A DNA stretch of 64,000 nucleotides from Candidatus Omnitrophota bacterium (GCA_028715785.1 JAQURC010000002.1:8402-72401), one strand, 5' to 3'. Shown: positions 1,724-47,056, numbered from the stretch's first letter. Translations and numbers: made by a program. The notes: generated from the sequence alone by a model not told the origin.

Positions 1724-1975
1724 ATGGCAGTACATATTCGACTAAGAAGGATTGGTAAAAATCCCGGCGGAAAGCCGCATTTCCGCGTTACCGTCTTTGA
1801 TGAGCGCAGGGGCCGGGACAGCCGGATAATCGAAGAGCTGGGTTATTATAAACCGACCAGCGGCTCGGCAGTGCTTAAGCAAGAGCGCATCGCAGCCTGG
1901 ATAAAAAATGGCGCCCAGTTGTCTGCAACCGTAAAGAGTTTATTGAAGAAGTCCAATAATACCCCGCGCTTATAA
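1724..1975 (+). CDS. rpsP: 30S ribosomal protein S16
   Basis: MAVHIRLRRIGKNPGGKPHFRVTV... typical S16 N-terminus; SD GGGAGG upstream. Confidence 0.9.
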   Translation: MAVHIRLRRIGKNPGGKPHFRVTVFDERRGRDSRIIEELGYYKPTSGSAVLKQERIAAWIKNGAQLSATVKSLLKKSNNTPRL

Positions 1976-2030
1976 GGAATTGCGCGCCTGCCTACCGGCA
2001 GGCAGGGGCAGCCCTTTTGGGCAAAGGAGC
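1961..2030 (+). repeat. gene-proximal hairpin+SD element, variant copy with extra palindrome (CCTGCCTACCGGCAGGCAGG) upstream of yajC; overlaps rpsP stop
   Basis: ACCCCGCGCTTATAAGGAATTGCGCG...GGCAGCCCTTTTGGGCAAAGGAG; rpsP ends ...NNTPRL* with TAA inside the element loop. Confidence 0.65.
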
Positions 2031-2035
2031 TTAAT

Positions 2036-2314
2036 ATGCCACAGCAAAACGCAGTTAACCCGATAGTTCAGCTTTTACCGTTAGCTTTGATCTTTGTTAT
2101 TTTTTATTTTCTGTTGATCCGCCCGCAGAAGCAAAAGGAAAAAGAGCACCAGAAAATGCTGGCGGGAATTAATAAAAATGACGAGGTGGTAACTTCAGGC
2201 GGGATACACGGGGTGGTAGTCAATGTAAAGGAGAAGACCTTGACGCTGCGCATCGATGAAAATGTGAAGATGGAGATTGAAAAGAACAGCGTCGCTTATA
2301 TCAAAAAGCCTTAA
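2036..2314 (+). CDS. yajC: preprotein translocase subunit YajC
   Basis: 92 aa, single TM helix then FYFLLIRPQKQ motif; directly upstream of secDF. Confidence 0.8.
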   Translation: MPQQNAVNPIVQLLPLALIFVIFYFLLIRPQKQKEKEHQKMLAGINKNDEVVTSGGIHGVVVNVKEKTLTLRIDENVKMEIEKNSVAYIKKP

Positions 2315-2342
2315 AATATATCAGAAAAACAGGAGCTAAATA

Positions 2343-4544
2343 ATGGAAAGAAAGCTGACCTATAAAATATTGCTTATCTTAGGCGTAATTGGATTGTGCG
2401 CATATTATACCTTTCCCCTGAGTAAGCATATTAACCTGGGCCTGGATTTGCAGGGAGGGATGCATCTGTTGCTTAAAGTTGATACCAGTCATCTTGAGGG
2501 AAAGGCAAAATTAGATGCCTGTGACCGGGCAGTCGAGGTTATCCGTAACCGCATCGATGAGTTCGGGGTCAGGGAGACTTCCATTCAAAAGCAGGGCGAG
2601 GATGAAATTGTAGTGCAGCTTCCCGGGGTTACTGACCGGCAGCGCGCCATTGATTTAATCGGTAAAACCGCAATGCTTGAATTTAAAGTTGTCTCCAATG
2701 ATGCGGATAAGCTCAAGGAGTCAATCGCCGGCACGATCCCTGAAGGTTATGAATTAAAATATTCTCAGGAAGAGAATGAGCCGTTATTGCTTGAGAAGAA
2801 AACCGTTTTAGTCGGGGATTCTTTAACCGATGCTTCGGTGCGTTTTGATCAAAGCCAATTCAGCGAGCCGATTGTTGCTTTACAGTTTAACGCCGCAGGC
2901 TCCAAGAAATTTGCCGAAATAACCGCGGCAAATGTAGGAAAGCGCCTGGCGATTGTCCTGGATGGAAAGGTGCAGTCAGCGCCCAGGATCAGGGAGGCGA
3001 TCCCTTCAGGGGAGGCGGTAATTACCGGCAGGTTTGATGTTCAAACTGCCCAGGACCTGGCCTTAGTTTTAAGGGTAGGGGCCTTACCTGCGCCAATGCA
3101 TATTGAGGAGGAAAGGACAATCGGCCCGTTATTGGGGCAGGATTCGATAAGTAAAGGAGTTAAGGCCTGCATTATCGGCATCGGCTTAGTTTTTATTTTT
3201 ATGGCTGTTTATTACCTTTTAGCCGGGATCGTTGCCAATATCGCCCTTATGCTTAACCTGCTTATAATCTTAGGATCGTTGGGCATGCTTCCTTTAATAT
3301 TTCCCGGCATATCCGCCACTTTGACTCTTCCGGGGATTGCCGGTATCGCTCTTTCTTTAGGTATGGCAGTAGATGCCAACGTCTTGATTAATGAGCGCAT
3401 AAGAGAAGAGTTGGCCGCGGGCAGAAGTTTACGCCTGGCAATAACCAACGGATATGGGAGGGCTTTTAGCGCCATATTCGATTCAAACCTTACTACCTTA
3501 ATTGCCGCGTTCCTTTTGTTCCAATTTGGCACCGGGCCCATAAGGGGTTTTGCGGTTACCTTAACCATCGGTTTGATTGCCAGCATGTTTACCGCTATTA
3601 TCGTAACCAGGGTAATCTTTGAACTCCTTTTAAATTCGGGAATCCTGAAATCATTGCCGATGTTAAAGTTGATCAAGGATACAAAAATAGATTTTATTAG
3701 CAAAAGAAAGATTTTTTATGCGCTTTCTATTGTAGTTACGGTAGTAGGGTTGGTTTCGTTCTTAATGAAAGGGAGCAAGGCTTACGGTATAGATTTTTCC
3801 GGAGGGCAGCTCCAGGAGTATATGTTTAAGGCCCCGCCTTCTGTTGATAAGGTTAGAAAGGTTTTAGACCAGATAAATCTCAGTAACGCTTCCATACAGC
3901 AGTTCAAAGACAACCCGAATGTTTTACTGATCAGGACCTCTGAAGATAAGAATGAGATATTGACTAAGGAACTAAAACAAAGTTTTCCCCAGGATGATAT
4001 TCAAGTTTTAAGGATCGAGCGCGTTGGCCCTGTAGCGGGAAAACACTTAAGGGATAAGGCGGTGCTGGCGCTTTTCTGGGCGTTGGCAGGGATCCTTATT
4101 TACGTTGCTTTCAGGTTCAAGCATTTTAACTTTGCGATCGCCGGGATTATCGCTCTTCTTCATGATGTTTTAGTTTCTTTGGGCATGCTTTCCCTGACCG
4201 GCAGGCAAATAGACCTTTTAAGCGTCACTGCTTTTTTAACTATTGCCGGCTATTCAATAAATGATACGATTGTTATTTATGACCGGGTGCGGGAAAATGC
4301 CAAGTTTTACCGCAAATTGAATCTTTATGAATTGATAAACCTAAGCGTGAATCAATGTTTGGGGAGGACGCTGCTTACCAGCGGAGTTACCTTGTTGTGC
4401 GTTTTGGCAATATTTTTATACGGTGGGGAGATCCTCGGTAATTTTTCTTTTGCTTTGTTAGTTGGTTTTTTCTGCGGAGCTTATTCTACGGTTTATATCG
4501 CTTCACCGCTGGTGCTTGCTTGGAGCCGCAAAAGCTCTAAATAA
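2343..4544 (+). CDS. secDF: protein translocase subunit SecDF (fused SecD-SecF)
   Basis: 733 aa; SecD periplasmic domain plus two six-TM halves; yajC-secDF synteny. Confidence 0.9.
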   Translation: MERKLTYKILLILGVIGLCAYYTFPLSKHINLGLDLQGGMHLLLKVDTSHLEGKAKLDACDRAVEVIRNRIDEFGVRETSIQKQGEDEIVVQLPGVTDRQRAIDLIGKTAMLEFKVVSNDADKLKESIAGTIPEGYELKYSQEENEPLLLEKKTVLVGDSLTDASVRFDQSQFSEPIVALQFNAAGSKKFAEITAANVGKRLAIVLDGKVQSAPRIREAIPSGEAVITGRFDVQTAQDLALVLRVGALPAPMHIEEERTIGPLLGQDSISKGVKACIIGIGLVFIFMAVYYLLAGIVANIALMLNLLIILGSLGMLPLIFPGISATLTLPGIAGIALSLGMAVDANVLINERIREELAAGRSLRLAITNGYGRAFSAIFDSNLTTLIAAFLLFQFGTGPIRGFAVTLTIGLIASMFTAIIVTRVIFELLLNSGILKSLPMLKLIKDTKIDFISKRKIFYALSIVVTVVGLVSFLMKGSKAYGIDFSGGQLQEYMFKAPPSVDKVRKVLDQINLSNASIQQFKDNPNVLLIRTSEDKNEILTKELKQSFPQDDIQVLRIERVGPVAGKHLRDKAVLALFWALAGILIYVAFRFKHFNFAIAGIIALLHDVLVSLGMLSLTGRQIDLLSVTAFLTIAGYSINDTIVIYDRVRENAKFYRKLNLYELINLSVNQCLGRTLLTSGVTLLCVLAIFLYGGEILGNFSFALLVGFFCGAYSTVYIASPLVLAWSRKSSK

Positions 4545-4549
4545 AAAAT

Positions 4550-4600
4550 GGGGACGGTTCTATTTTTCTAAATTAAATCGGGAAAAATAGAACCGTCCCC
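4550..4600. repeat. 19-bp perfect inverted repeat hairpin (GGGGACGGTTCTATTTTTC / GAAAAATAGAACCGTCCCC, 13-nt loop); member of a long-hairpin repeat family; possible terminator for secDF
   Basis: Read directly; related copy at 62613-62691. Confidence 0.6.
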
Positions 4601-4611
4601 ATCCATTCAAT

Positions 4612-6507
4612 ATGTTATTTAAATCACTCAAACTATATCCTAATCAAGATATTAACTTAGAAACTCTTTCTGAGGCCCTGGTTGATTTTGGTTACCGCAG
4701 GCAGAAGATGGTTTCCGCAGAAGGCGATTTTAGCCGCCGCGGTTCGATTATCGATATTTTCCCGGCCTCCTTTGAATTACCCATCCGTATTGAATTAGGT
4801 AATGAAAAAATCATTTCCATCAAAACTTTTAATCCTTCCAGCGGCCAGGCCCTTTGGCAGCATAATATCGTTATTGTCCTGCCGCATAAAAAGTCCTCAG
4901 GCGCCAGAGGCCGCGTATTTAACGAAAAGTTCCCTTTAAAAAATTTCGTAGATTTGAATATCGGTGATTTTGTAGTGCATAACCAGCATGGCATAGGAAG
5001 GTTCCTGGGCATGCAGAAGATCAAGGCAGGAAGCGGCCTTAAGGACCACCTGGTGATTGAGTATGACCGCAATGAAAAACTGTATGTGCCGGTTGACGCC
5101 ATGCACCTGGTGCAGAAGTATATTGCTTTTCACGCGGGGCGGCCTAAACTCTACCGTTTAGGCAATAAGCAGTGGCAGAGGGTAAAGGCGAAGGCGCGCA
5201 AGGGCGTTCAAAAGCTGGCCTGGGAACTATTGAGTCTGCAGGCAATGCGCCTGGCTTCTAAGGGGTTTAAGTTTTCCGCGGATACCGATTGGCAGGCTGA
5301 TTTTGAAAAGACATTTCCGTATGAAGAAACCCCCGATCAGGCCAAGGCAATGGCAGAGGTTAAGCTCGATATGGAATCTTTTAAGCCCATGGACAGGCTG
5401 CTTTGCGGGGATGTGGGGTATGGAAAGACCGAAGTAGCGATGCGGGCGGCATTTAAATCGGTGATGGACAATAAACAGGTTGCTTATCTTGTCCCGACCA
5501 CTATTTTAGCCGAGCAGCATTATAAGAATTTCACCGGCCGGTTGGCTAATTTTGCGGTAAATGTTGCGATGCTTTCCCGTTTTAAAACCATCAGGCAGCA
5601 AAAAGAAATTATCGAAGGGTTAGCCGACGGAAGCGTGGATATAGTTATCGGCACGCACCGGCTGCTTTCGGATGACGTGGTTTTTAAGGATTTAGGTTTG
5701 GTTATCGTTGATGAAGAGCAGCGGTTTGGAGTTGAGGCTAAAGAAAAGCTGAAAAAACTTAAAACTACCATCGATGTCCTGGTTTTAACTGCCACACCGA
5801 TCCCGCGCACCTTGTATATGAGTTTAATGGGGGCAAAAGAAATTTCGGTAATCAATACCCCGCCGCAAAATAGGTTGCCTATCAAGACGGTTGTGGTAGA
5901 ATATGATGCGGATTTGGTAACCCAGGCCATTAAGCGGGAACTGGCGCGCCGCGGCCAGGTGTTTTTTCTGCATAACCGTATCCTGGATTTGGAAAAAATC
6001 CGGGATAAGATCGCAAAGAATTTGCCGGCAGGCGCGAGGATTGCCATGGCCCATGGCCAAATGAATTCTTCTTTGCTTGAGCGGATCATGTCGGATTTTA
6101 TTTCCGGCAATATCGATGTTTTGGTCTCAACCATGATTATTGAATCCGGCATCGATATACCAAATGCCAATACCATTATCGTAAATAACGCGCAGATGTT
6201 TGGATTATCTGATCTGCATCAATTACGCGGCAGGGTGGGCAGGTTTAACCGGTCCGCCTACGCGTATTTTATGGTTCCTGGCAATATGGTTTTGGAAGCC
6301 GATGCCAAAAAACGGCTGCAGGCGATAGAGGAATACACCGAGCTGGGGGCCGGTTTTAATATTGCCATGCAGGATCTGGAGATCCGCGGGGCCGGCAACA
6401 TCCTGGGACAAGAGCAGCACGGATTTATCGTGGCTGTGGGGTTTGACCTTTATTGCAGATTATTAAAAGAAGCGGTGGTCAATTTTAAGAAAGCAGGGGT
6501 ATTTTAA
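4612..6507 (+). CDS. mfd: transcription-repair coupling factor Mfd, short form (RNAP-interacting domain plus RecG-like translocase; lacks the UvrB-homology N-terminal module)
   Basis: 631 aa; [14 protein letters not shown] (Mfd RID motif), DEAD/DEAH helicase motifs ([35 protein letters not shown]). Confidence 0.8.
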
Positions 6508-7418
6508 TGAAGCGCATAATTAGTTTTTCGGCCATTGCAATTACGCTTATTTTTTTTATCCCCTTTCTTTACGCGCAGGATAAGGTGGTGGCGATAGTGA
6601 ACAATGAAATTATCACGCAAAAAGACCTCAATGATTTTTTGAATTATATACGCCTGCAGTATTCACGCGAAGTTAAAGGAAAGGCTTTGGCGGAAAAAGT
6701 AGAAGCGATGCGGCAGGATCTATTACAGCGTTTAATCGAAGACCGGATTATACTTGCGCAGGCAAAGATCGATAAGATAAATATCGATTCCAACAGGGTA
6801 AAAGAAAAAATTAATGAGATTAAAAAGCGTTACCGGTCGGATTCGGAAATGGAACGTGATTTGGCTAAACAGGGATTAGTGCAGGCGGATTTGGAAAATA
6901 AGATCCGGGAGCAGATGCTCACCTATAGCATTATCGAGCAGAAGGTGCGCAGTAAAGTAGTGGTTTGGCCGGAAGAAATCACCAGCTTTTATAACCAAAA
7001 TAAGCAGCAGTTTTTAAAACCTGAGGAGAGGATCCTCACGATTATTATCTTGCCCAGTGAAGATTTGGCTAAAACCGTCAGTTATCAGTTGAGGATTGGG
7101 TCAAAATTAGAGGAGCTTGCCGCAAAATACCAGTTTACCACCGATAAGCTTATTGCCTGGCAGGGGCAGCAGCTGCGCAGCGAGATCGAAGAAACGGTAT
7201 TTAAATTGGGAATAGGGGAAGTATCTAATCCGGTAAAAATCGACGAGCAATATTATATCTTCAAGTTAGATGATATTGCCGGAAGCCGGCAATTGAGTTT
7301 GGATGAGGCGCAGGCTAATATCCAGGCTTATTTATTCGATAAGAAACTGCAGGATGCCCTGGCCAAATGGTTAAATGAACTTAAAAAACAATCCTACATT
7401 AAAATCCTCGACAATTAG
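6507..7418 (+). CDS. surA: SurA-like periplasmic chaperone / PpiC-type peptidyl-prolyl isomerase
   Basis: Signal peptide, SurA N-domain, degenerate parvulin domain; conserved surA-pdxA-ksgA synteny. Confidence 0.7.
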   Translation: MKRIISFSAIAITLIFFIPFLYAQDKVVAIVNNEIITQKDLNDFLNYIRLQYSREVKGKALAEKVEAMRQDLLQRLIEDRIILAQAKIDKINIDSNRVKEKINEIKKRYRSDSEMERDLAKQGLVQADLENKIREQMLTYSIIEQKVRSKVVVWPEEITSFYNQNKQQFLKPEERILTIIILPSEDLAKTVSYQLRIGSKLEELAAKYQFTTDKLIAWQGQQLRSEIEETVFKLGIGEVSNPVKIDEQYYIFKLDDIAGSRQLSLDEAQANIQAYLFDKKLQDALAKWLNELKKQSYIKILDN

Positions 7419-12196: not shown

Positions 12197-12202
12197 AAAG
12201 TA

Positions 12203-12229
12203 CCCCGCGCTTAGCGGAATTGCGCGGGG
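12203..12229 (+). repeat. gene-proximal hairpin element, partial copy (hairpin 1 only: CCCGCGC-TTAGCGGAATT-GCGCGGG)
   Basis: Sequence family alignment; tandem with the next copy. Confidence 0.6.
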
Positions 12230-12244
12230 TTACACTATGGGCAA

Positions 12245-12294
12245 CACCCCGCGTTTATAAGGAATTACGCGGGTGTGTCCTACTGACAAGGAGG
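12245..12294 (+). repeat. gene-proximal two-hairpin+SD element (copy upstream of rplL; hairpin 2 variant GTGTCC-TAC-TGACA)
   Basis: CACCCCGCGTTTATAAGGAATTACGCGGGTGTGTCCTACTGACAAGGAGG then ATG. Confidence 0.7.
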
Positions 12295-12299: not shown

Positions 12300-12683
12300 A
12301 TGGCAACTGCAAAAATGGAAGATTTAATCAAGTCAATTGAGACGATGAGCGTTCTTGAACTGGCCGACTTAGTTAAAGCTTTGGAGGAAAAATTTGGCGT
12401 AAGCGCAAACATGCCGATGGCCGCAGCGCCTGCTGCCGGTGCCGCAGGCGCAGCCCCCGCTGCCGAAGAGAAGAGCGCTTTTACCGTAGTGTTGACTAAT
12501 GCCGGGGCGAATAAAATCGCGGTAATCAAAGAAGTGCGCACGATTACCAGTCTCGGTTTGAAAGAAGCCAAAGATTTAGTCGATGCCGCTCCTAAGCCGA
12601 TCAAGGAAGGCGTAAATAAAGAAGAAGCTGCGGAAATGAAGAAGAAATTAGAAGCAGCCGGGGCTACCGTAGAATTAAAGTAA
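12300..12683 (+). CDS. rplL: 50S ribosomal protein L7/L12
   Basis: [34 protein letters not shown]..., Ala/Pro hinge; start corrected to ATG after SD (ORF-track start at 12273 runs through the repeat). Confidence 0.95.
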
Positions 12684-21042: not shown

Positions 21043-23139
21043 ATGAGAAAGATTCCTTTAGATAAAATTAGAAATATTGGAATAATTGCCCACATCGACG
21101 CCGGAAAAACTACCACCAGCGAGCGCGTTTTGTTTTATACCGGTAAAAATTATAAGATTGGCGAGGTGCATGACGGGGCAGCGACTATGGACTGGATGGT
21201 CCAGGAGCAGGAGAGGGGCATTACGATTACCGCTGCCGCTACTACTTGCAAATGGAAGGATATCACGATTAATTTAATCGATACTCCCGGCCACGTAGAT
21301 TTTACTATCGAAGTGGAAAGATCGTTGAAGGTTCTGGACGGTGCGGTAGTTGTTTTTTGCGGAGTCGGCGGAGTTGAACCGCAATCAGAAACCGTATGGC
21401 GCCAGGCGGACCGTTACGGCGTTCCAAGGATCGCCTTTGTTAATAAAATGGACCGCACCGGTTCGGATTTTTTTGCGGCAATTGACCAGATGCATGAAAG
21501 ACTGGGGGCTAATGTTGCGGCTATTCAGCTTCCCGTTGGCAGGGAGAGCGGTTTTAACGGCCTGGTGGATCTGGTTGAAAAAAAATTAATCCATTACGAA
21601 GAAATTCTAGGTAAAGAATTTGAAGTAAAAGAGCTTCCGGAAGAGATGTTTGGCGATTTTGAAAAATACCGCGCGATTCTTGTCGAAAAAGTCGCTGAAG
21701 CGGATGATAAGATCATGGAAGATTATTTACAAGGTAAGACTGTAACTAACGAAGAGTTAAAAGCAGCGATACGCAGGAGCGTACTTATAAATAAATTTGT
21801 GCCGGTACTTTGCGGTTCAGCTTTTAAGAATAAAGGCGTGCAGATGGTTTTGGACGCGGTCAGAGACTATCTTCCTTCTCCGCTTGATGTCCCTCCGGTA
21901 AAAGGCACAAATCCGGATTCCGGAGAATTTGAAGAGGTAAAGGCCGATGATAATGCTCCTTTTGTCGCGTTATGTTTTAAGGTAGCCACCGATCCTTTTG
22001 TGGGAAAAATATTTTTTGTAAGGATGTATTCCGGAACGCTTACTTCAGGAACTTATATTTACAATGCTTCAAAGAGAGAAAGAGAGCGGGTTACTAAGAT
22101 TGTTAAATTGCATGCTAACCATCAGGAGGTAACTGACAGTATTTCCACAGGAGATATTGCTGCCTTTGTCGGTTTAAAAGATACAAAAACCGGAGATACC
22201 CTTTGTACCGAGAAAAATCCTATTCTTGTTGAGGCGATGCGTTTTCCGGATCCGGTTATCCAGCAGGCAATCGAACCTAAGTCCAAGGACGCCCAGGAAA
22301 AATTGGGTATGGCCATGCATAAGCTGGAAGATGAAGATCCGTCATTTAGAGTTACCTATAATCAGGAAACAGGCCAAACACTTATCGCCGGGATGGGGCA
22401 GTTACATTTGGAAATTATTGTCGATAGAATTTTACGCGAGTTTAATGTTGAGGCTACCGTGGGCGCTCCGCAGGTTGCTTATCGGGAAACGATCAGGAAA
22501 AGTGTTTCTAGCGTCGGAAAATTTATTTCCCAATCCGGCGGCCGCGGCCAATACGGCCATTGCGTTATTGAGATGAGCCCGCAAGAGACTCCCGGGACCG
22601 GTATTACATTCGAAGATAAAATTAAGAGCGGGGCAATTCCGCGCGAATTTATTCCTGCGGTAAAACAGGGAGTAATGGGTGCTGTCAAAAACGGGACATT
22701 AGCAGGATATCCGGTTACCGACGTCAAAGTCGTTTTGGTCGACGGGTCATTTCATGAAGTTGATTCTTCAGAGTTAGCGTTTAAAATGGCAGGGAGCATC
22801 GCGTTTCAGGATGGAATGAAAAAAGCCAATCCTGTTTTATTGGAACCGATTATGGATATTGAAGTTGTGGTACCTGAAGAATTTATGGGCCAGATTATCG
22901 GTGATCTCAGCAGCCGGCGCGCAAAAATAATTGCCCTTGGTCAGAGGCTGAACTTGCGTACTATCCGAGCCAATGTTCCGCTGTCGGAAGTTTTTAATTA
23001 CGCAACCGTAACAAGATCCTTGACACAAGGCCGTGCATCATATACAATGGAACCTTCTTTTTACAGCGAAGTTCCAGCACAGGTAGCTGAAAAAGTTATT
23101 CAAGGCTCAACCAATACAAAAGAAAGAAAAACTTTTTAA
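21043..23139 (+). CDS. fusA: elongation factor G
   Basis: 698 aa; G-domain [22 protein letters not shown]. Confidence 0.97.
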
Positions 23140-23145
23140 AAAAAC

Positions 23146-23196
23146 ACACCCCGCGCTTATAAGGAATTGCGCGGGTGTGCCCCTAGGGGCAAGGAG
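23146..23196 (+). repeat. gene-proximal two-hairpin+SD element (upstream of tuf)
   Basis: CACCCCGCGCTTATAAGGAATTGCGCGGGTGTGCCCCTAGGGGCAAGGAGG. Confidence 0.75.
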
Positions 23197-23204
23197 GATA
23201 AAAA

Positions 23205-27428: not shown

Positions 27429-27761
27429 ATGATCTCAAGAGCGGAAGGAAAATTTTTAAGGATTTCACCCAGTAAGGTGCGCATCGTTGCCGATCTTATC
27501 CGCGGCAAGGATGCCCTCCAGGCGCAAAGTATCCTGCTGCATTTGAATAAAAGGTCAAAAGAGTACCTGATAAAAATATTGAAATCCGCGATCGCTAACG
27601 CTAAAGTCAAGGGTTTTGCGGCCGAGAAATTATATGTTTCCAAGATTGTTTGTAATCCCGGGCCGATGTGGAAAAGATTTAAGGCCGCTGCTTTTGGCCG
27701 GGCCGCGTCAATAGTTAAACGTACGGTGCATATAAAAATTGAATTGGATTTAAAAGCTTAG
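27429..27761 (+). CDS. rplV: 50S ribosomal protein L22
   Basis: MISRAEGKFLRISPSKVRIVADLIRGK...; start corrected from ORF-track 27294 to in-frame ATG just after the rpsS stop. Confidence 0.93.
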   Translation: MISRAEGKFLRISPSKVRIVADLIRGKDALQAQSILLHLNKRSKEYLIKILKSAIANAKVKGFAAEKLYVSKIVCNPGPMWKRFKAAAFGRAASIVKRTVHIKIELDLKA

Positions 27762-27811
27762 CACCCCGCGCTTATAATGTATTGGGCGGGTGTGCCCTTT
27801 TGGGCAAGGAG
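27762..27811 (+). repeat. gene-proximal two-hairpin+SD element (upstream of rpsC)
   Basis: CACCCCGCGCTTATAATGTATTGGGCGGGTGTGCCCTTTTGGGCAAGGAG. Confidence 0.75.
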
Positions 27812-27819
27812 AATAATTC

Positions 27820-30875: not shown

Positions 30876-30878
30876 ATT

Positions 30879-30929
30879 ACACCCCGCGCTTATAATGAAT
30901 TGCGCGGGTGTGCCCGTGTGGGCTAGGAG
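30879..30929 (+). repeat. gene-proximal two-hairpin+SD element (upstream of rpsH)
   Basis: CACCCCGCGCTTATAATGAATTGCGCGGGTGTGCCCGTGTGGGCTAGGAG. Confidence 0.75.
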
Positions 30930-30934
30930 AATAA

Positions 30935-31330
30935 ATGTCCAGGACAGATTTAATCGCAGATGTTTTTACAATCATACGTAATGCAATATTGATTAAACGG
31001 GATACCGTGGATCTTCCGGCTTCCGGTAACATCAAATCGATTATGGCTATTCTTAAAAAGAATGAATACATCGATAATTTTAAGCTGATTGAAGATAAAA
31101 AGCAGGGATTGGTAAGGGTTTATTTAAAGTATACCGCCGGAAAATCAGCTATCCGCAATATCAAGCGGGTTTCCCGGCCGGGTTTGAGGGTTTATGCTCG
31201 AGGCAAAAAGGTCCCCACAGTTTTGCGCGGCAGGGGCCTGGCAATCGTTTCTACTTCTAAGGGCGTAATCACCGATAAAGAAGCCAGGGAGTTGGGTGTG
31301 GGTGGCGAAGTTATTGGTTATATTTGGTAA
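30935..31330 (+). CDS. rpsH: 30S ribosomal protein S8
   Basis: MSRTDLIADVFTIIRNA... S8 family. Confidence 0.95.
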   Translation: MSRTDLIADVFTIIRNAILIKRDTVDLPASGNIKSIMAILKKNEYIDNFKLIEDKKQGLVRVYLKYTAGKSAIRNIKRVSRPGLRVYARGKKVPTVLRGRGLAIVSTSKGVITDKEARELGVGGEVIGYIW

Positions 31331-31332
31331 AT

Positions 31333-31381
31333 ACCCCGCGTTTATAAGGTATTGCGCGGGTCTGCCCTTGCGGGCAAAGGA
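31333..31381 (+). repeat. gene-proximal two-hairpin+SD element (upstream of rplF; stem G-U variant, weak SD AAGGAAA)
   Basis: ACCCCGCGTTTATAAGGTATTGCGCGGGTCTGCCCTTGCGGGCAAAGGAAA. Confidence 0.7.
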
Positions 31382-31388
31382 AAAATAA

Positions 31389-36044: not shown

Positions 36045-36263
36045 ATGCCAAAAGAAGAACTGATTGAGACAGAAGGAAAAATTATCGAAGCGCTGCCCAA
36101 TGCCATGTTTAAGGTAGAGCTTGAGAACGGACATGTGGTTTTAGCGCATGTTTCGGGAAAAATGCGGATGAATTTCATCAGGATTCTTCCGGGTGATAAA
36201 GTTAAGTTAGAGCTTTCTCCTTATGATTTAAGCCGGGGGAGAATTACTTTTAGGGTGAGATAA
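36045..36263 (+). CDS. infA: translation initiation factor IF-1
   Basis: 72 aa S1-like OB fold. Confidence 0.93.
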
Positions 36264-36377
36264 ATGAAAGTTAAAGCGTCGATCCGTAAAATTTGCGATA
36301 AGTGTAAAATAATCAAAAGAAGAGGGGTAGTGCGGGTTATTTGCGTAACTACCAAACATAAACAAAGGCAAGGGTAA
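36264..36377 (+). CDS. rpmJ: 50S ribosomal protein L36 (zinc form)
   Basis: 37-aa [40 protein letters not shown] (below ORF-track cutoff); between infA and rpsM. Confidence 0.9.
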
Positions 36378-36390
36378 AATTATTTTTTAA

Positions 36391-36440
36391 CACCCCGCGC
36401 TTAAAAGGAATCGCGCGGGTCTGCCCGCCTGGGCAAGGAG
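36391..36440 (+). repeat. gene-proximal two-hairpin+SD element (upstream of rpsM)
   Basis: CACCCCGCGCTTAAAAGGAATCGCGCGGGTCTGCCCGCCTGGGCAAGGAG. Confidence 0.75.
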
Positions 36441-36448
36441 CTTAAAAT

Positions 36449-36859
36449 ATGCCAAGAATTATCGGTGTTGATATACCAAAAGAAAAAAGGATTGAGATTG
36501 CTCTTACTTATTTATATGGAATAGGCAGGGCGCTTTCAAATGTTGTGCTTAAGGAAGCAGGGATCAACCCGGATAAGCGGGCCAAGGATTTAAGCGAAGA
36601 GGAGGTCTCCCGGATTACCAATATTTTGCAAAAAGGGACATGGAGGATCGAGGGGGATTTACGGCGCGATATATCGCAGAATATCAAGCGCCTTATGGAC
36701 ATTGGTTCCTGGAGGGGGATGCGCCATAAAAAAGGCCTTCCGGTCAGGGGTCAGCGCACGCGCACTAATTCGCGTACCAGAAAAGGCAAGAAGAGGGTAA
36801 ATCTTGCTCCTATAAAAAAAGCCGAACCGGCAAAAGCCGCTAAGCCTGCCGCAAAATAA
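36449..36859 (+). CDS. rpsM: 30S ribosomal protein S13
   Basis: [26 protein letters not shown]. Confidence 0.95.
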
Positions 36860-36861
36860 TA

Positions 36862-36910
36862 CACCCCGCGCTAATTTGAATTGCGCGGGTGTGTGTTCGT
36901 ACACAAGGAG
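36862..36910 (+). repeat. gene-proximal two-hairpin+SD element (upstream of rpsK; hairpin 2 fully covaried TGTGT-TCGT-ACACA)
   Basis: CACCCCGCGCTAATTTGAATTGCGCGGGTGTGTGTTCGTACACAAGGAG. Confidence 0.75.
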
Positions 36911-36921
36911 ATAAAAATAAA

Positions 36922-37311
36922 ATGGCGACAAAAGATAACGCAAAGAAGAAAAAAATCGCACGGGGCATAACCAGCGGTATTGCCCATATCCAGGCAAGCT
37001 TTAATAACACGATTATTTCAATAACCGACAAGCAGGGCAATGTCCTGGCTTGGAGCGCTCCGGGGACCGTTGGTTACAGCGGTTCTAAGAAATCCACGCC
37101 ATTTGCCGCCCAAATTGCGGCAACGGATGTTGCCAGGAAGGCCAAAGAAGTCGGTGTCAAGGAATTGGAAGTTTATGTGAAGGGTCCGGGTTTCGGCAGG
37201 GAGTCGGCGATCCGGGCGCTTCAGGCAGCAGGAATGGTTGTAACTTTGATTAAGGATGTGACTCCTATTCCTCATAATGGTTGCCGTCCTAAGAAGAAAA
37301 GGAGAGTCTAA
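36922..37311 (+). CDS. rpsK: 30S ribosomal protein S11
   Basis: S11 family; start corrected to ATG after SD (ORF-track start 36889 lies in the repeat). Confidence 0.93.
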
Positions 37312-40750: not shown

Positions 40751-42003
40751 GCCAAGCGACTATAGCCGAAAAAATATTAAGCAAGCATGCCGGTAAAACC
40801 TTGCGCGCAGGAGATTTTGCGGTCTGCAAAATTGATTTTGCTTTTGGCCAGGATGGAACCTCCTCGATAATTATCGACCGGATAAAAGAGCTGGGGGTAA
40901 AAAAAATAAAAACCAAGTTTTGCATGGTAATTGACCATAGCGCCCCCAGCCCCAGCGAAGGGGTTTCCCGGGTGCATAAGAAGATGCGCGATTTTTCGCA
41001 GGATTTTAATACGGAAATTTTCGATATCGGCTGCGGGGTTTGCCATCAGGTTATCCCTGAATCGGGAAATGTTTTACCCGGAGATTTAGTTTTAGGGGCA
41101 GATTCCCATACCTGTACCTATGGGGCACTGGGGGCATTCTCTACGGGTGTGGGTTCTACGGATCTGGCGATAGCTTTAGCTACGGGAAAGAATTGGTTTA
41201 AAGTCCCGGCAACCGTGAAAATTATCGTTACGGGAAAACTTCCCAAAGGGGTTTTTGCCAAGGATATAATTTTGCATATAATCGGTAAATTAAAAAGTGA
41301 CGGGGCTACCTATAAAGCAGTTGAATTCTACGGCCCGGCGATTAATAATATGGGTATGGACGGCCGGTTCACTGTTGCCAATATGCTGGTTGAGATGGGG
41401 GCAAAGACAGGCTTTCTGCCGGTTGATGATAAAACCGCTGCCTGGTTAAAATCCAGGGTTAGCGGCAGCCGGCGCATTGAACATATTACCGCAGACAAAG
41501 GGGCTCTTTATGAGAATGTTTATGAGTTTGATATTTCAAAACTTGAACCGGTGGTTTCTATGCCCCATAGCGTAGATAATACCGCGCAGGCATCGACTTT
41601 AAAAAAGGTAAAAATAAACGAAGCTTTTTTGGGCACCTGTACTAACGGCCGGATCGATGATTTGAAGGTTGCGGCAAAGATCTTGAATAAACGCAAGGTT
41701 TCTCCGCAAGTTAAATTAATTATTGCTCCGAGTTCCCGCAGCGTCTATCTGGAGGCTTTAAAACTCGGCCTGGTTGAGATATTTATCAAAGCCGGGGCAG
41801 TGATTGTGGCTCCGGGCTGCGGCCCTTGCGTGGGCACGCATAACGGTATTCCCAGCGACGCAGAAGTGGTGATCTCAACCGCAAATCGTAATTTTAAAGG
41901 CAGGATGGGAAATCCTTCGGCTTTTATTTATCTGGCTTCTCCGGCTACGGTGGCGGTTTCGGCGCTTAAAGGTTACATTAGTGATCCCAGGGATTATTTC
42001 TAA
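40732..42003 (+). CDS. leuC: aconitase-family hydro-lyase large subunit, small type (3-isopropylmalate / homoaconitate dehydratase LeuC-like)
   Basis: 423 aa; Fe-S ligand context GTCTNGR, CGPCVG; paired LeuD-like gene downstream. Confidence 0.75.
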   Translation: MDNKTMSQATIAEKILSKHAGKTLRAGDFAVCKIDFAFGQDGTSSIIIDRIKELGVKKIKTKFCMVIDHSAPSPSEGVSRVHKKMRDFSQDFNTEIFDIGCGVCHQVIPESGNVLPGDLVLGADSHTCTYGALGAFSTGVGSTDLAIALATGKNWFKVPATVKIIVTGKLPKGVFAKDIILHIIGKLKSDGATYKAVEFYGPAINNMGMDGRFTVANMLVEMGAKTGFLPVDDKTAAWLKSRVSGSRRIEHITADKGALYENVYEFDISKLEPVVSMPHSVDNTAQASTLKKVKINEAFLGTCTNGRIDDLKVAAKILNKRKVSPQVKLIIAPSSRSVYLEALKLGLVEIFIKAGAVIVAPGCGPCVGTHNGIPSDAEVVISTANRNFKGRMGNPSAFIYLASPATVAVSALKGYISDPRDYF

Positions 42004-42004
42004 C

Positions 42005-42053
42005 CACCCCGCGCTTATAAGGAATTGCGCGGGTGTGCCCGTGTGGGCAAGGA
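42005..42053 (+). repeat. gene-proximal two-hairpin+SD element (upstream of pilT)
   Basis: CACCCCGCGCTTATAAGGAATTGCGCGGGTGTGCCCGTGTGGGCAAGGAGG. Confidence 0.75.
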
Positions 42054-42060
42054 GGAATTG

Positions 42061-43107: not shown

Positions 43108-43607
43108 GTATTGAAGGCAAAAGCGTAAAACTCGGGGATAATATAAATACGGATTTTATCATTTCCGGAAGGTATAAGTTTGCCATTACCGATATGAAGG
43201 AGCTGGCCAAACACATTATGGAGGATATCGACCCGAATTTTCCGCAGAAGATTGTTCCGGGAAAAACCATTATCGTCGCCGGCAATAACTTTGGCATGGG
43301 TTCAAGCCGCGAACAGGCCCCGTTGGTAATCAAAGAGGCCGGGGTTGTTGCGGTCCTATCCCCGCAATTTGCGCGCATATTTTTTCGCAATAGCTTTAAT
43401 ATCGGGCTGCCTTTGATTGAAACTGACACCAGTAAAATTGAGGAGGCAGACCGGCTCCAAATCGATTTAGATAAAGGTTTGGTAAAAAATCTCACCAAAG
43501 GCATTGATTTAGAGATTAAGCCTCTGCCTAAATTCATGCAGGACCTTTTAAGCGAAGGCGGCATAATTAATTATTACAAAAAACACGGAGAACTACCTGC
43601 GTTATAA
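43104..43607 (+). CDS. leuD: aconitase-family hydro-lyase small subunit (LeuD-like)
   Basis: 167 aa aconitase C-terminal swivel domain; 4-nt overlap with pilT. Confidence 0.75.
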   Translation: MSIEGKSVKLGDNINTDFIISGRYKFAITDMKELAKHIMEDIDPNFPQKIVPGKTIIVAGNNFGMGSSREQAPLVIKEAGVVAVLSPQFARIFFRNSFNIGLPLIETDTSKIEEADRLQIDLDKGLVKNLTKGIDLEIKPLPKFMQDLLSEGGIINYYKKHGELPAL

Positions 43608-43689
43608 AATTTGTGTAATTGAAAAAAAGAAAGCAATAAACCAGCGTTACACGTTACGCATTAAACGTTACACAAAATAATTATTTAAT

Positions 43690-44778
43690 ATGGTTCATAA
43701 AATAACTCTTATTCCCGGCGACGGTATCGGATATGAAGTTTCACTTGCGGCTAGGCGGTGCATCGAGGCCACGGGTGTTAATATCGAGTGGGAGAACGTG
43801 CTTGCCGGTTCCGATGCCCTGGATAAAACCGGGGAGCTCCTGCCGCAGAGCGCGCTGGATTCAATCAAGAAAAATAAGGTTGCCCTCAAAGGGCCGATCA
43901 CCACACCCATTGGAACCGGGTTTCGTTCGGTAAATGTGGCGATCAGGCAAGCGTTGGATCTTTACGCCTGCCTGCGTCCGGCTAAAAGTTATTTAGGGGT
44001 AAATAGCCGTTTTAAGGACATTGACTTGGTTATTGTCAGGGAAAACAGCGAAGACCTTTACGCCGGCATAGAATTTGAAGAGGGTAAGCCTGAAACTAAG
44101 AACCTGATCGCCCAGATTCAAAAGGACACCAAAAGGCTGATCCGCCGGGATTCCGGTATAAGCATCAAACCAATATCTAAATTCGCATCGGAGAGGATCG
44201 TAAAATTTGCCTTTGAGTATGCTTTAAAAAATAAACGTAAGAAAGTTACCTGCGTGCATAAGGCAAATATCATGAAATTTACCGACGGTTTATTTTTAAA
44301 AGTTGCCCGGGAGGTTGCCCAAAAGTATGCCGGAAAAATAATTTTTGAGGAAGCAATCGTGGATAATATGTGTATGCAGCTGGTGCAGAAGCCGCATAAT
44401 TATGATGTCTTGGTGCTGCCTAATCTTTACGGGGATATCATTTCTGACCTTTGCGCCGGGCTCATCGGCGGCCTGGGAATTGCACCCGGCGCCAATATCG
44501 GCGCGGAGCTGGCGGTTTTTGAAGCTGTGCATGGCTCTGCTCCGAAATATAAAGGGAAGAACAGAGTTAATCCCACGGCGATGATCTTGTCGGGGGCCTT
44601 GATGCTGCGTTATATTAATGAAGAAAAAGCTGCGGACAGCTTAGAAGAAGCGGTAAAGCAGGTGATTGCCGAAGGAAAATCCGTAACCTATGATTTAAAA
44701 GCCGATCCGCTTGACCCCGGCGCTGTTGGTACCGCGCAGATGGCTGATGCCATTATTGACAAGCTAAAAAGAATATAA
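43690..44778 (+). CDS. isocitrate/isopropylmalate dehydrogenase family protein (NAD-IDH-like)
   Basis: 362 aa; IPGDGIG, LDLYACLRP, NLYGDIISD motifs. Confidence 0.75.
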   Translation: MVHKITLIPGDGIGYEVSLAARRCIEATGVNIEWENVLAGSDALDKTGELLPQSALDSIKKNKVALKGPITTPIGTGFRSVNVAIRQALDLYACLRPAKSYLGVNSRFKDIDLVIVRENSEDLYAGIEFEEGKPETKNLIAQIQKDTKRLIRRDSGISIKPISKFASERIVKFAFEYALKNKRKKVTCVHKANIMKFTDGLFLKVAREVAQKYAGKIIFEEAIVDNMCMQLVQKPHNYDVLVLPNLYGDIISDLCAGLIGGLGIAPGANIGAELAVFEAVHGSAPKYKGKNRVNPTAMILSGALMLRYINEEKAADSLEEAVKQVIAEGKSVTYDLKADPLDPGAVGTAQMADAIIDKLKRI

Positions 44779-44782
44779 ACTT

Positions 44783-45703
44783 ATGAAGATTACCGTAATC
44801 GGCGCAGGAAACGTGGGGAGCCTGACTGCAATGCGCATCGCCCAGGATGGACTGGGCGATGTTTTGCTTATTGACATCGTCAAGGGGCTGGCGCATGGGA
44901 AGGCTTTGGATTTAGAGGATGCCCGGCCGCTCCTAAAACATAATTATAATATTCGAGGCAGTGATGATATCGCCCAGCTTAAGGATTCGGATATCGTGGT
45001 GGTTACCGCCGGCCTGGCGCGTAAACCCGGGATGAGCCGCGAAGAATTGCTGGCAAAGAATGCCCAGATTTTAAAAGGAGTGTGTTTGAATATAAAAGAG
45101 CTGGCCAGGAATGCGATTGTTATAATCGTCACCAATCCTTTGGATATTATGACTTTTTATGCCCTGAAAATTACCGGTTTTAAGCCCGGCAGACTTTTTG
45201 GCATGGGGATTAGTTTGGATACTGCCCGGTTTATCAATTTAATCGCCGGCGAATTAAATTTACCGGTTACGGATATTGAGGCATTAGTCATCGGCGCCCA
45301 CGGTGAAGGCATGCTTCCTTTGCCGGCTTTGGCTAAAGTTAAGGGTGTGGCGTTAGATGAATTTATCGGCGACGATAAGATTGGCGTATTAGTCAGCCGC
45401 ACGGTTGCCAGGGGCGCTGAAATCGTTGCCAACCTTGGAACAGGGAGCGCGTTTTTTGCCCCGTCAGCGGCAATCGCGGCAATAGTCAAAACAATAGTCA
45501 AGGATGAAAAACGCATTATTGGGTTGTGCAGTTATCTTAACGGAGAATACGGCATCAAGAATAGCTGTATAGGCGTTCCCTGCCGTTTAGGCAAAAACGG
45601 CATTGAACAGATTATTCAACTGGACCTTTCGCCGGAAGAGAAAAACAGGCTGACCAAATCCGCGCAGCTTGTAGCTGCTGCGGCAGCGCAATTATTGGCT
45701 TAA
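44783..45703 (+). CDS. mdh: malate dehydrogenase (LDH-like MDH)
   Basis: GAGNVG Rossmann motif; GLARKPGMSREEL with Arg specificity residue. Confidence 0.85.
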   Translation: MKITVIGAGNVGSLTAMRIAQDGLGDVLLIDIVKGLAHGKALDLEDARPLLKHNYNIRGSDDIAQLKDSDIVVVTAGLARKPGMSREELLAKNAQILKGVCLNIKELARNAIVIIVTNPLDIMTFYALKITGFKPGRLFGMGISLDTARFINLIAGELNLPVTDIEALVIGAHGEGMLPLPALAKVKGVALDEFIGDDKIGVLVSRTVARGAEIVANLGTGSAFFAPSAAIAAIVKTIVKDEKRIIGLCSYLNGEYGIKNSCIGVPCRLGKNGIEQIIQLDLSPEEKNRLTKSAQLVAAAAAQLLA

Positions 45704-45718
45704 AAACCAACCATACCT

Positions 45719-47002
45719 ATGTATGATCTGGCTGTTATTGGAGCAGGCTGGGCAGGTTTTAACGCTGCCCTAAAAGCAAAAGAGCTGGGCCTGAAGGTTT
45801 GCCTTATTGAATCCGGCCGGATCGGCGGAACCTGCCTTAATTTCGGATGTATTCCCACCAAAGCATTAATCGTTTGCGCGAAAATATTTCAGCTGGCTAA
45901 AAAAGCACCGGGTTTTGGGGTAGAGCTGGATAATCCGCGGTTTAATTTCACAAAAATCCAGGAAAGAAAAAATAAAATCGTCCGGGAGCTTGCCCAGGGG
46001 ATGCGCGGCAGGCTTGCCGGAATCGATCTTATCGAATCCGTTGCCCGGATCAGTTCTCCTAATGAAATAAAAGCCGATGGCCGCCTGATCAACAGTAAGT
46101 TTATACTTATTTCAACCGGCAGTCATTCGGTTCTATTGCCCGGGTTAAAGATTGATCAAGAAAAAATAATTTTAAGCGACCAAGCCCTGGCTTTATCGGA
46201 AATTCCCCAATCTTTATTAATTATCGGAGGAGGAGTAATTGGCTGTGAATTCGCCAGTCTTTTTTCTATTTTAGGCAGCAAGGTGGCCATTATTGAAAAG
46301 ATGCCGTTTCTTTTGCCGGGAGAAGACATGGATATAGCCAGAAAGATAGAAGTTATTTTTAAGAAAAAAGGAATCCAGGTAACTTGCGGCGCGGATATCG
46401 CTAATTTCAATTTGGAAGATTATTCCCGTATTTTAGTTTGCGTAGGCAGGACCGCCAATACCGCCGGTTTAGGTTTGGAAAACTTAGGCGTAGAATTGGC
46501 AAATAACAGGATAATCGTTGATGATTATCTTCAGAGCAGCGTTGCCGGTATATATGCGGCAGGAGATTGCGCCTCTAAGATAATGCTTGCTCATTATGCT
46601 GCTTATCAGGGGAGAGCGGCGGTTGAAAATATGGTTTCAAATAATAAGCATAAGGCGGATAATAAGATTGTGCCTGCCTGCATATTCACCGAGCCGCAGA
46701 TTGCCAGCGTCGGCTTAAATGAAGAGAACGCCCTGGCTGCCGGCTTATCGGTTAAAGTCCATAAATTTGATTTTCGCGCCAATGCCATGGCGCGCATTAT
46801 CGATGAGGCCGAAGGATTCATCAAGATTATTAGCAACCGGCAAACTCAGGAAGTGATCGGCGCCAGCATAATCGGTCCGCTTGCCAGCGAGTTAATCTCC
46901 ATTCTCTCTATGGCAATTTCAGCGCATTTGACTGTTGACCAGATTCGCGCGATGATATTGGCGCATCCCACTCTTTCTGAATCAATATATGAAGCTGTCT
47001 AA
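45719..47002 (+). CDS. lpd: dihydrolipoyl dehydrogenase
   Basis: 427 aa; GGTCLNFGCIPTK redox disulfide, FAD/NAD folds, C-terminal His-Pro-Thr-xSE. Confidence 0.85.
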   Translation: MYDLAVIGAGWAGFNAALKAKELGLKVCLIESGRIGGTCLNFGCIPTKALIVCAKIFQLAKKAPGFGVELDNPRFNFTKIQERKNKIVRELAQGMRGRLAGIDLIESVARISSPNEIKADGRLINSKFILISTGSHSVLLPGLKIDQEKIILSDQALALSEIPQSLLIIGGGVIGCEFASLFSILGSKVAIIEKMPFLLPGEDMDIARKIEVIFKKKGIQVTCGADIANFNLEDYSRILVCVGRTANTAGLGLENLGVELANNRIIVDDYLQSSVAGIYAAGDCASKIMLAHYAAYQGRAAVENMVSNNKHKADNKIVPACIFTEPQIASVGLNEENALAAGLSVKVHKFDFRANAMARIIDEAEGFIKIISNRQTQEVIGASIIGPLASELISILSMAISAHLTVDQIRAMILAHPTLSESIYEAV

Positions 47003-47007
47003 ACCAT

Positions 47008-47056
47008 CACCCCGCGCTTAGAGGAGTTGCGCGGGTGTGCCCTGGTGGGCAAGGAG
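47008..47056 (+). repeat. gene-proximal two-hairpin+SD element (upstream of lipoyl-domain gene)
   Basis: CACCCCGCGCTTAGAGGAGTTGCGCGGGTGTGCCCTGGTGGGCAAGGAGG. Confidence 0.75.

Follow-up and report, generated by a model that had tools for sequence, protein, structure and literature searches.

A repeated two-hairpin element with a Shine–Dalgarno sequence directly before start codons in Candidatus Omnitrophota

The element and its copies in the window

A 64,000-nucleotide stretch of DNA from a Candidatus Omnitrophota bacterium (GCA_028715785.1, JAQURC010000002.1:8402-72401), the whole of which is referred to here as the window, carries ribosomal protein genes and others that are preceded by a repeated element of about 50 nt, made up of two hairpins and a Shine–Dalgarno (SD) sequence. 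A first-pass annotation had counted 11 copies of this element before 10 different genes, and the count was borne out by an unfiltered scan of the entire window with a covariance model, R1 (made from 76 copies, with 53 positions and 14 base pairs). Exactly 11 matches were obtained at E<1e-6, each on the + strand, as are all the genes concerned; hairpin 2 and the SD of copy 1 make up the next-best match (E=0.04). With a stem-only pattern, 8 sites were detected in the window versus 0.23 by chance, and the three divergent copies beyond these were recovered by a repeat finder. By their Pfam matches, the downstream genes encode YajC, L7/L12, EF-Tu, S3, S8, L6, S13, S11, a PilT-type ATPase and a lipoyl-domain protein, and the upstream genes encode S16, L10, EF-G, L22, S14, S8, (L36), S13, an aconitase-family protein and a lipoamide-type dehydrogenase.

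The wide junctions between ribosomal protein genes, also remarked on in the first-pass annotation, are real: same-strand junctions with the element measure 58-65 nt, and 103 nt where a tandem pair is present, versus mostly -8 to +30 nt for junctions that do not have it. An apparent gap of 185 nt before the rpsM copy arises because rpmJ lies inside it, as a small open reading frame (ORF) at 36264-36377 (+) between infA and the copy, encoding the 37-amino acid L36 and falling under the cut-off of the ORF list. Copies in the window start 2-10 nt past the upstream stop codon, with copy 1 as the exception, and close with AGGAG(G), then 4-10 nt, then ATG. The claim of an SD in every copy had to be dropped, as the upstream member of the pair before rplL has none.

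Hairpin 1 reads 5′-ACA-C(N)CCGCGC, loop UUAUAAKGWAUU, GCGCGGG-UGU-3′, and has 10 base pairs and one bulged nucleotide, which is usually C and sometimes U or A. It had been described as a GC stem of 7 bp with a conserved 12-nt loop; the conservation of the loop, which is 11-12 nt long (with 11-nt variants such as UUAGCGGAAUU), was upheld, whereas the stem proved longer, since the flanking ACA pairs with UGU. Hairpin 2 abuts hairpin 1 with zero linker and consists of a GCCC/GGGC stem with a freely varying loop of 4-5 nt. It is followed by 2 nt (AA or UA; the linker ranges from 0 to 5 A residues across copies), a near-consensus SD (GGAGG), 4-9 nt and the AUG. In minimum free energy folds both hairpins form, and the SD and AUG are mostly unpaired.

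Copy 1 (1958-2029, before the yajC ATG at 2036) is matched by R1 in two parts, with 27.4 bits at 1958-2006 and 12.5 bits at 2010-2029. It had been taken for degenerate and is instead an intact copy in which a foreign 20-nt palindrome (1987-2006) has been inserted into the hairpin-1 3′ arm. The stop codon of rpsP (1973-1975) is the TAA of its loop, hairpin 2 and the SD lie at 2010-2029, and the predicted fold is a three-way structure closed by CCCC/GGGG. Copies 2 and 3 form a direct tandem pair after rplJ. The distal member, copy 2 (12199-12242, 30.9 bits), is the one that has no SD, and it has an 11-nt hairpin-1 loop and a degenerate hairpin 2; the proximal member, copy 3 (12243-12294, 66.7 bits, before the rplL ATG at 12300), has U-A as a compensated closing pair, and its hairpin 2 is the variant GUC/GAC. 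At the fusA/tuf junction, copy 4 (23145-23197, 74.2 bits, ATG 23205) has the consensus sequence, with orthologous copies in 7 other loci. Copy 5, between rplV and rpsC (27760-27812, 68.6 bits, ATG 27820), has the loop UUAUAAUGUAUU and one G-G mismatch in its stem, and orthologous copies were found in the related loci L092, L129, L135 and L143.

Copy 6 fills the rpsN/rpsH junction (30878-30930, 72.7 bits, ATG 30935) and has a site-specific loop, UUAUAAUGAAUU, that it holds in common with its orthologous copies in L001 and L065. The next junction, rpsH/rplF, contains copy 7 (31330-31382, 64.1 bits, ATG 31389), with a U-G closing pair. Further on, copy 8 lies between rpmJ and rpsM (36389-36440, 64.2 bits, ATG 36449; orthologous copy in L061) and copy 9 between rpsM and rpsK (36860-36911, 61.2 bits, ATG 36922), the latter with an 11-nt loop and a fully compensated hairpin 2 (UGUGU/ACACA). 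Outside the ribosomal protein genes, copy 10 has the consensus sequence and separates an aconitase-family gene from a pilT-like gene (42003-42055, 75.5 bits, ATG 42061; orthologous copies in L034 and L125), and copy 11, with the 11-nt loop UUAGAGGAGUU, separates a dihydrolipoamide-dehydrogenase-type gene from a lipoyl-domain gene (47006-47057, 69.1 bits, ATG 47063).

RNA structure and occurrence in other genomes

The two hairpins had been proposed from the window only, and their pairing was examined in larger sets of copies. In a 76-copy alignment, 97.7% of cells pair and 6 pairs show compensatory changes. The first alignment had an outer helix of ACA/UGU in 61 copies versus AUA/UAU in 19, with few mixed cases, and a hairpin-1 closing pair that was C-G in 99, U-A in 11 and U-G in 5; compensatory changes were also present within hairpin 2. 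Because this first set came from a stem-based search, a second sample was taken from metagenomes with a pattern that fixed only the loop, ACA/UGU and the SD, leaving 27 stem positions free. All 55 copies selected in this manner have complementary stems, with 97.3% of cells pairing and compensatory changes at 9 of the 14 pairs; none of 500 shuffles reached the observed values, and slid controls paired at 15-59% only. The stem sequence is also conserved, with 28 of the 55 reading exactly CCCCGCGC/GCGCGGG. G-U pairs outnumber A-C by 25 to 8, and the pairing is therefore selected on the sense strand, in the transcript. The element acts as an RNA structure, and the two-hairpin structure is real, with compensatory changes in both hairpins even where the stems were left unconstrained.

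The covariance-model search proposed in the first-pass annotation was run on related DNA as well as on the window, and copies proved to be abundant in relatives. A collection of species-representative genomes was scanned with a loop-agnostic pattern and gave 104 stretches, 97 of them from 52 species-level metagenome-assembled genomes (MAGs). The remaining seven (L004, L035, L039, L044, L076, L087 and L100) were left out as chance matches in GC-rich genomes, having neither the loop nor the SD. Of the MAGs, 51 are labelled Candidatus Omnitrophota/Omnitrophica or “uncultured Planctomycetales” and one Deltaproteobacteria. The contig binned with the latter has a good copy (L064 5190-5239, 55.9 bits) that has no SD and could represent a mis-binned Omnitrophota contig or a transfer. 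Another 55 metagenome contigs carry the element with nearly unchanged sequence. The EF-Tu and S8 proteins of the window share 82-97% identity with those encoded on element-bearing MAG contigs, which places the window in an Omnitrophota genome.

The R1 model gave 122 and 79 matches in the two locus sets, and with relatives sampled in windows of at most 8 kb around matches, 181 strong copies (at least 40 bits) were present in about 1.1 Mb of related DNA, compared with 11 copies in the 64-kb window. Copies additional to those that defined the loci occur about once per 17-28 kb, which therefore suggests on the order of 100 copies per genome as a rough estimate. Two scans of IMG/VR viral sequences gave 0 matches, and there is thus no sign of carriage by phages. 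In line with the first-pass annotation, no described motif was found to correspond to the element: no Rfam 15 family matches it at the gathering score across the whole window, where only a cobalamin riboswitch and two tRNAs were found, and permissive scans of 36250-36950, L061, L086 and L092 returned noise or nothing. The full text of the literature consulted, which included the main Omnitrophota genome papers, makes no mention of such an element.

Start codons, inheritance and spread

Among the 181 strong copies, 172 directly precede a start codon that opens an ORF of 30 codons or more. The distance from SD to start is mostly 4-9 nt, and ATG is used in 102 of 110 starts. The exceptions are distal tandem members, copies that precede very small ORFs, a single copy at the end of a contig and another in antisense orientation. 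Copies in L019, L029 and L030 that have no SD still closely precede an ATG. The antisense copy (L011 5792-5836) is the only clear case and fills the 62-nt spacer between two genes on the opposite strand, and the element can therefore persist in reverse without serving as a ribosome-binding site.

The relationship with the upstream gene is looser. About two thirds of copies start within 8 nt after a same-strand stop codon or overlap one, and the others are separated from the preceding gene by a longer spacer or have no gene in front of them. Upstream ORFs terminate at the loop TAA in 16 of 115 copies, and rplV of L092 and rpsP in the window do so too. Where an ORF ends in this way, its last residues (Thr-Pro-Arg-Leu in that frame) are encoded by the 5′ arm of the element. 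For copies with such a longer spacer or no gene upstream, sigma-70-like -35/-10 boxes were found about 7-50 nt upstream of the element. Another such site, TTGACA-17-TACAAT with 11 of 12 matches, lies in the 3′ end of fusA (23020-23048, +), about 100 nt before the tuf copy, and suggests a tuf-specific transcript with the element in its 5′ untranslated region (UTR). The element is, as judged by these predicted sites, a transcribed part of the 5′ UTR, with promoters lying upstream at variable distances, and it is not a duplicated promoter, an explanation that the first-pass annotation had named as one that would undo its own. It is not only intercistronic but is also found in the 5′ UTR of operon-first genes, and its function therefore attaches to the downstream start site; the invariant partner of the element is that start site and not the end of the upstream gene. 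The first-pass annotation had also argued against a terminator, and this stands: hairpin 1 is followed by UGU and hairpin 2, and hairpin 2 by AAGGAGG, there being no U tract, and a terminator scan of the window lists none of the 11 copies.

The genes that carry the element begin with unusually strong ribosome-binding sites, with a predicted SD/anti-SD duplex energy, calculated with a generic anti-SD, of -9.1 kcal/mol versus -4.6 kcal/mol for the other 61 genes of the window (p=3e-5). Downstream genes belong to 95 different Pfam families, and a ribosomal protein autoregulatory leader, an operon-specific mimic of the rRNA site of one such protein, was ruled out on the ground that a single motif precedes all of these. 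Recurring orthogroups include EF-Tu, S8, S3, GroES, L20, L31, L35, S13, L6, Skp, DnaK and ClpP, along with the Flp pilin, PilT, MlaD, SMC, PII, AmtB, glutamine synthetase (GS) and PEPCK, so that the element-bearing genes are mostly those of abundant housekeeping proteins.

Copies are present at orthologous sites in different genomes, including those before tuf, rpsH, rpsC and groES. The orthologous tuf and rpsH copies are 85-98% identical, with four-fold degenerate sites at 31-69% identity, and conservation of the copies despite near-saturation of these sites argues therefore for purifying selection. Orthologous copies also have signatures of their own: for example, the loop is AAUGAA before rpsH, the closing pair is U-A before tuf, a lipoprotein gene is preceded by copies with a bulged U, and at the Flp pilin gene hairpin 2 has GCCU/AGGC. 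Identity is 90.1% for orthologous and 84.9% for non-orthologous pairs, a difference reached in 0 of 5000 resamples. Many copies, as these comparisons indicate, are not recent inserts but ancient ones that have been passed on vertically and kept under purifying selection.

Signs of spread are present in the same genomes. The rpsH-rplF junction has a copy in the window and a plain spacer of 27-33 nt in L065 and L086. Direct tandem doublets or triplets occur at 12199/12243 in the window, in L132 (on both sides of rpsH) and in L138, and complete copies are nested within the hairpin-1 loops of others, at up to 3 levels, in L134, L135, L124 and L061. In tandem pairs, as in L088 and L025, the stems of the second copy are often variants with full compensation (CCCGGCG/CGCCGG, GCGC/GCGC), which would prevent mispairing of neighbours. 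Tandem, nested and lineage-specific copies therefore point to copy-and-paste spread, and growth of the family by this route, with settled copies inherited vertically under purifying selection, is partly shown. The suggestion of a repeat-like element that brings its own ribosome-binding site thus gains from the tandem and nested copies, from junctions filled in one genome and empty in another, and from SDs that are stronger than those of other genes.

Proposed role, alternatives and comparable elements

The element probably controls translation of the downstream genes. The account that is favoured, with due caution, is that it is a portable and structured translation-initiation module with an unusually strong SD, the loop of hairpin 1 probably being read by a factor. 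Such a module would act in cis on the mRNA, as the whole intercistronic spacer for genes within operons and as the 3′ part of the 5′ UTR for operon-first genes, and would supply the downstream gene with its unusually strong SD. The RNA from the upstream stop to the SD would be folded into a compact, stable and self-contained unit, and we infer from this model an insulation step, in which downstream initiation would become independent of the upstream sequence and of translation of the upstream gene. The GC-rich hairpins could also act as caps against exonucleases, protecting the upstream message segment at its 3′ end and the downstream one at its 5′ end, and would in this way permit unequal output within an operon, with rplL above rplJ and tuf above fusA. 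The conservation of loop and stem sequence across species implies a trans-acting partner for hairpin 1, which may be an RNA-binding protein that is itself conserved or else the 30S subunit; with such a partner, the module-bearing genes, about 100 in number and rich in ribosomal proteins, EF-Tu, chaperones, pilins and enzymes at nitrogen and carbon hubs, would form one coordinated set.

Several points weigh against this module. The stem sequence is conserved far beyond structural need, which could reflect a recognition signal at the level of DNA or of transposition. Some contigs of 0.6-0.9 Mb have a single match to the strict pattern, and copy number seems to vary widely among lineages, which is unexpected for an indispensable regulon signal. 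The generic anti-SD in the energy calculation may differ from the host 16S tail. Predicted accessibility of the SD and AUG (0.565 versus 0.53 for other genes of the window, p=0.24) does not differ significantly, and the idea that the structure exposes the SD therefore gains no support from folding alone. Lastly, no candidate partner for hairpin 1 was identified.

Omnitrophota are uncultured, ultra-small and apparently host-dependent bacteria, and to our knowledge nothing is known of how they regulate gene expression. A module before many highly expressed genes would be the phylum's first handle on post-transcriptional control, and the element would be a defined bait with which to look for the factor involved. 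With its covariation, it makes a strong candidate for a new RNA family. It would also show that a spreading repeat can carry a packaged ribosome-binding site which selection then retains, such that genes could join a regulon by way of a repeat. Of practical use, the covariance model could be applied to Omnitrophota MAGs to mark true start codons and, probably, genes with high expression. A bolder extension, and a rather doubtful one, is that hairpin 1 docks a lineage-specific global translation factor or the Omnitrophota 30S subunit, with a regulon of about 100 growth genes that was spread by copy-and-paste. If true, this would be a bacterial counterpart of the eukaryotic 5′ terminal oligopyrimidine (5′TOP) system, the regulon would be made up of ribosomal proteins, EF-Tu, chaperones, pilins and nitrogen- and carbon-hub enzymes, and membership would evolve by transposition of a ready-made ribosome-binding site.

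The alternative that survives best, unlikely as it is, holds that the element is a selfish mobile palindrome with no host function, similar to repetitive extragenic palindromic (REP) sequences, miniature inverted-repeat transposable elements (MITEs) or palindrome-associated transposable elements (PATEs). It would insert at SD-like AAGGA sequences or after stop codons, its orientation and distance to the start codon stemming from this choice of target. The nested copies, up to three levels deep, do sit in AAGGA-containing loops, and the tandem doublets and triplets, the junctions filled in one species and empty in another, the 16 of 115 copies in which the upstream ORF runs into the element and stops at the loop TAA, and the other small palindromes that nest in the same genomes all fit with mobility, as do the bulged base and conserved stem, which recall the subterminal hairpins read by Y1 transposases. 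Against it, orthologous copies with site-specific signatures persist at near-saturated synonymous divergence, unlike the decay of neutral inserts, and precise targeting of an SD is at odds with a linker of 0-5 A residues and with SD-less copies that are still positioned before an ATG. No target-site duplication or inverted doublet was seen. A tblastn search with IS200 and IS608 TnpA detected no IS200/IS605-type transposase in the 1.1 Mb around copies, this being a weak test on a small sample. MITEs have terminal inverted repeats and a target-site duplication; the two sides of the hairpin-1 stem could play the part of the former, and alignments without a close filled/empty pair gave no consistent flanking duplication.

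The likeness to REP sequences and bacterial interspersed mosaic elements (BIMEs) deserves attention, these being short, GC-rich, imperfect palindromes that are present in many copies in transcribed intergenic space, including that within operons, and that form hairpins in RNA. REPs stabilise upstream mRNA and, when located no more than 15 nt from a stop codon, influence translation of the gene before them, whose expression they lower in E. coli (Liang et al. 2015, as summarised in PMC12306157). The element shares this proximity, as about two thirds of copies lie within 8 nt of an upstream stop or contain it, and hairpin 1 is so near the stop that terminating ribosomes must melt it; it is speculation that a REP-like lowering of the upstream gene would add to unequal expression. 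The differences are considerable. REPs occur in both orientations and in inverted doublets, with no SD and no fixed relation to start codons, whereas the element is locked to the start (172 of 181). REPs have a GTAG-type head, a cognate REP-associated tyrosine transposase (RAYT) and a species-specific sequence, and the element has nearly the same sequence in at least 52 species-level genomes. It also has what REPs do not: a conserved 12-nt loop, a second hairpin, direct tandems and nested copies. There is no GTAG-type head, the 5′ flank (A)ACA covarying with the 3′ UGU as part of a helix, and no doublet of the inverted REPIN type, doublets of the element being direct tandems or nested. In the windows around copies, 1.1 Mb in all, tblastn gave no match to a RAYT- or IS200-like transposase, which is a weak negative. 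A possible RAYT-like gene between two inverted matches in L011 was rejected when the ORFs there proved ordinary by translation (aminotransferase, Lrp/AsnC-like, NAD synthetase-like and PhoU-like).

Among known systems, the idea of a repeat with a translation signal of its own comes closest to mycobacterial interspersed repetitive units (MIRUs), repeats of 40-100 bp that lie, as intercistronic copies of the element do, between operon genes in the same orientation as the genes. MIRUs are regarded as mobile, inserting at start codons in such a way that downstream expression is preserved (PMC12548453). A MIRU contains a small ORF whose stop overlaps the downstream start (coupling at a spacing of -4) and has no defining conserved hairpins, whereas the element has two hairpins and an SD, and no sequence relationship exists between them. 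By inspection, the element has no conserved ORF running through it, as a hairpin-2 loop of either 4 or 5 nt changes the frame from copy to copy. The element resembles a blend of the two, sharing with REPs a transcribed GC palindrome that affects the fate of the mRNA and with MIRUs a gene-oriented repeat inside operons that preserves downstream translation. Since it departs from both in defining features, it is classed as a variant among repeated intergenic hairpin elements, marked by fixed coupling to a ribosome-binding site, a conserved loop and conservation of sequence in many species of one phylum.

Other small inverted-repeat elements that are co-transcribed with their neighbours include Correia/NEMIS of Neisseria and the enterobacterial repetitive intergenic consensus or intergenic repeat units (ERIC/IRU), which alter mRNA processing or stability. 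These are 100-160 bp long and genus-restricted, with terminal inverted repeats, target duplications, both orientations and a variable distance to the start; the element, by contrast, is about 50 nt with a fixed orientation, no target duplication seen and a presence in many Omnitrophota species. The likeness to synthetic insulators of ribosome-binding sites, such as hairpin, ribozyme and bicistronic designs, is one of functional analogy only, both having a self-folding structure directly 5′ of a strong SD. Those parts are engineered and their insulation has been shown by experiment, compared with what we infer for the element, which would be a natural example of them.

A processing signal would explain some of the same observations, though it is quite improbable. 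Here hairpin 1 would be RNA punctuation, recognised by an endoribonuclease that cuts the polycistronic transcript into units of different stability. The element does lie between cistrons that need unequal output (rplJ/rplL, fusA/tuf and lipoamide dehydrogenase/lipoyl protein), and its loop and stem are conserved in sequence as a protein recognition site would be. RNase E prefers to cleave at RN|WUU, and the most conserved 3′ part of the loop, G-W-A-U-U, resembles this published consensus. Yet the element is also found in the 5′ UTR of first genes, with no cistrons to separate, and its coupling to the SD and start (172 of 181) is tighter than that to upstream stops (about two thirds).

Still less probable is an operator for a CsrA/RsmA-like global translational repressor, a dimer of which would bridge two GGA motifs, one in the hairpin-1 loop and one in the SD about 31 nt further on, and so block ribosome binding across a large regulon. 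In the known two-site architecture, one GGA lies in a hairpin loop and the other, some tens of nucleotides downstream, overlaps the SD, and the loop consensus A-A-G-G-A-A on a GC stem fits this together with the AAGGAGG SD; the GGA is also kept where stems are fully variant. CsrA sites require GGA, however, and the loop has GGA in only 66 of 110 copies (60%), with GGU in 22 and neither (UGA, UGU or AGA) in 22. The conserved sequence of the stems and the second hairpin, which CsrA does not need, are left unexplained, and tblastn with two CsrA sequences found no match in the 1.1 Mb of Omnitrophota DNA, a weak search given the small fraction of genomes covered.

A DNA-level reading is largely refuted and very improbable. 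It would make the element an operator for a dimeric transcription factor (CCCCGCGC-N12-GCGCGGGG) or a promoter with a TATAAG/TATAAT -10 box in the spacer, and the conserved half-sites with a fixed, AT-rich spacer of 12 bp and the TATAAT in the loop of the promoter-like rpsC copy speak for it. The compensatory substitutions and the excess of G-U over A-C point instead to a hairpin on the sense strand, and hairpin 2 varies in sequence while pairing is kept. The likeness to a -10 box is lost in 11-nt loops such as UUAGCGGAAUU, promoter-like sites are no commoner in the region than in shuffled sequence, and genuine promoter-like boxes lie upstream at variable distances. A sigma-70 promoter within the element, with -35 and -10 hexamers 16-18 bp apart, was rejected in particular, as no -35 is conserved and only the rpsC copy scores, by way of its chance TATAAT.

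Other candidates were also rejected. The integron attC site belongs to promoterless cassette arrays near intI and has a GTTRRRY core, which is absent here, the copies being dispersed between essential genes at orthologous positions. DNA uptake sequences are 10-12-mers present in thousands of copies in either orientation, and were ruled out by the fixed orientation of the element. Further ideas were likewise dropped without a dedicated test: a leader peptide from the GUG after hairpin 1, as the frame is not conserved; a kissing-loop dimer via the UUAUAA palindrome, as the palindrome is not conserved in 11-nt loops; and boxA/nut-like antitermination or tRNA-like punctuation by RNase P, as the defining features are absent.

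Some other elements were observed alongside. The 20-nt palindrome inserted in copy 1 is a variant of a perfect palindrome, CCTGCCTGCCGGCAGGCAGG, found at 58417-58436 in the 5′ UTR of the ORF at 58469, and further examples are present in L006, L071 and L091. In L071 it lies inside yet another repeat, and these palindromes seem to be a separate family that nests. A different conserved element of about 75 nt, GGGATTAATTCGCGCATT..ACTTACTCAYACT.TCGTGTTCGTAAGT.AAGCGCTCATTWA, has no Rfam match, is absent from the window and is found at ribosomal protein junctions of other Omnitrophota MAGs, where it is followed by an SD and ATG. Its sites are L086 1520-1597, the rpsC-rplP junction of L092/L135 (the same contig), L021, L061 and L071, and it has internal complementarity (ACTTAC/GTAAGT and GCGC/GCGC). 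The cobalamin riboswitch of the window (RF00174, 51862-52033, +, 88.4 bits, E=1.8e-20) lies upstream of ORFs from 52084 that resemble a transport operon.

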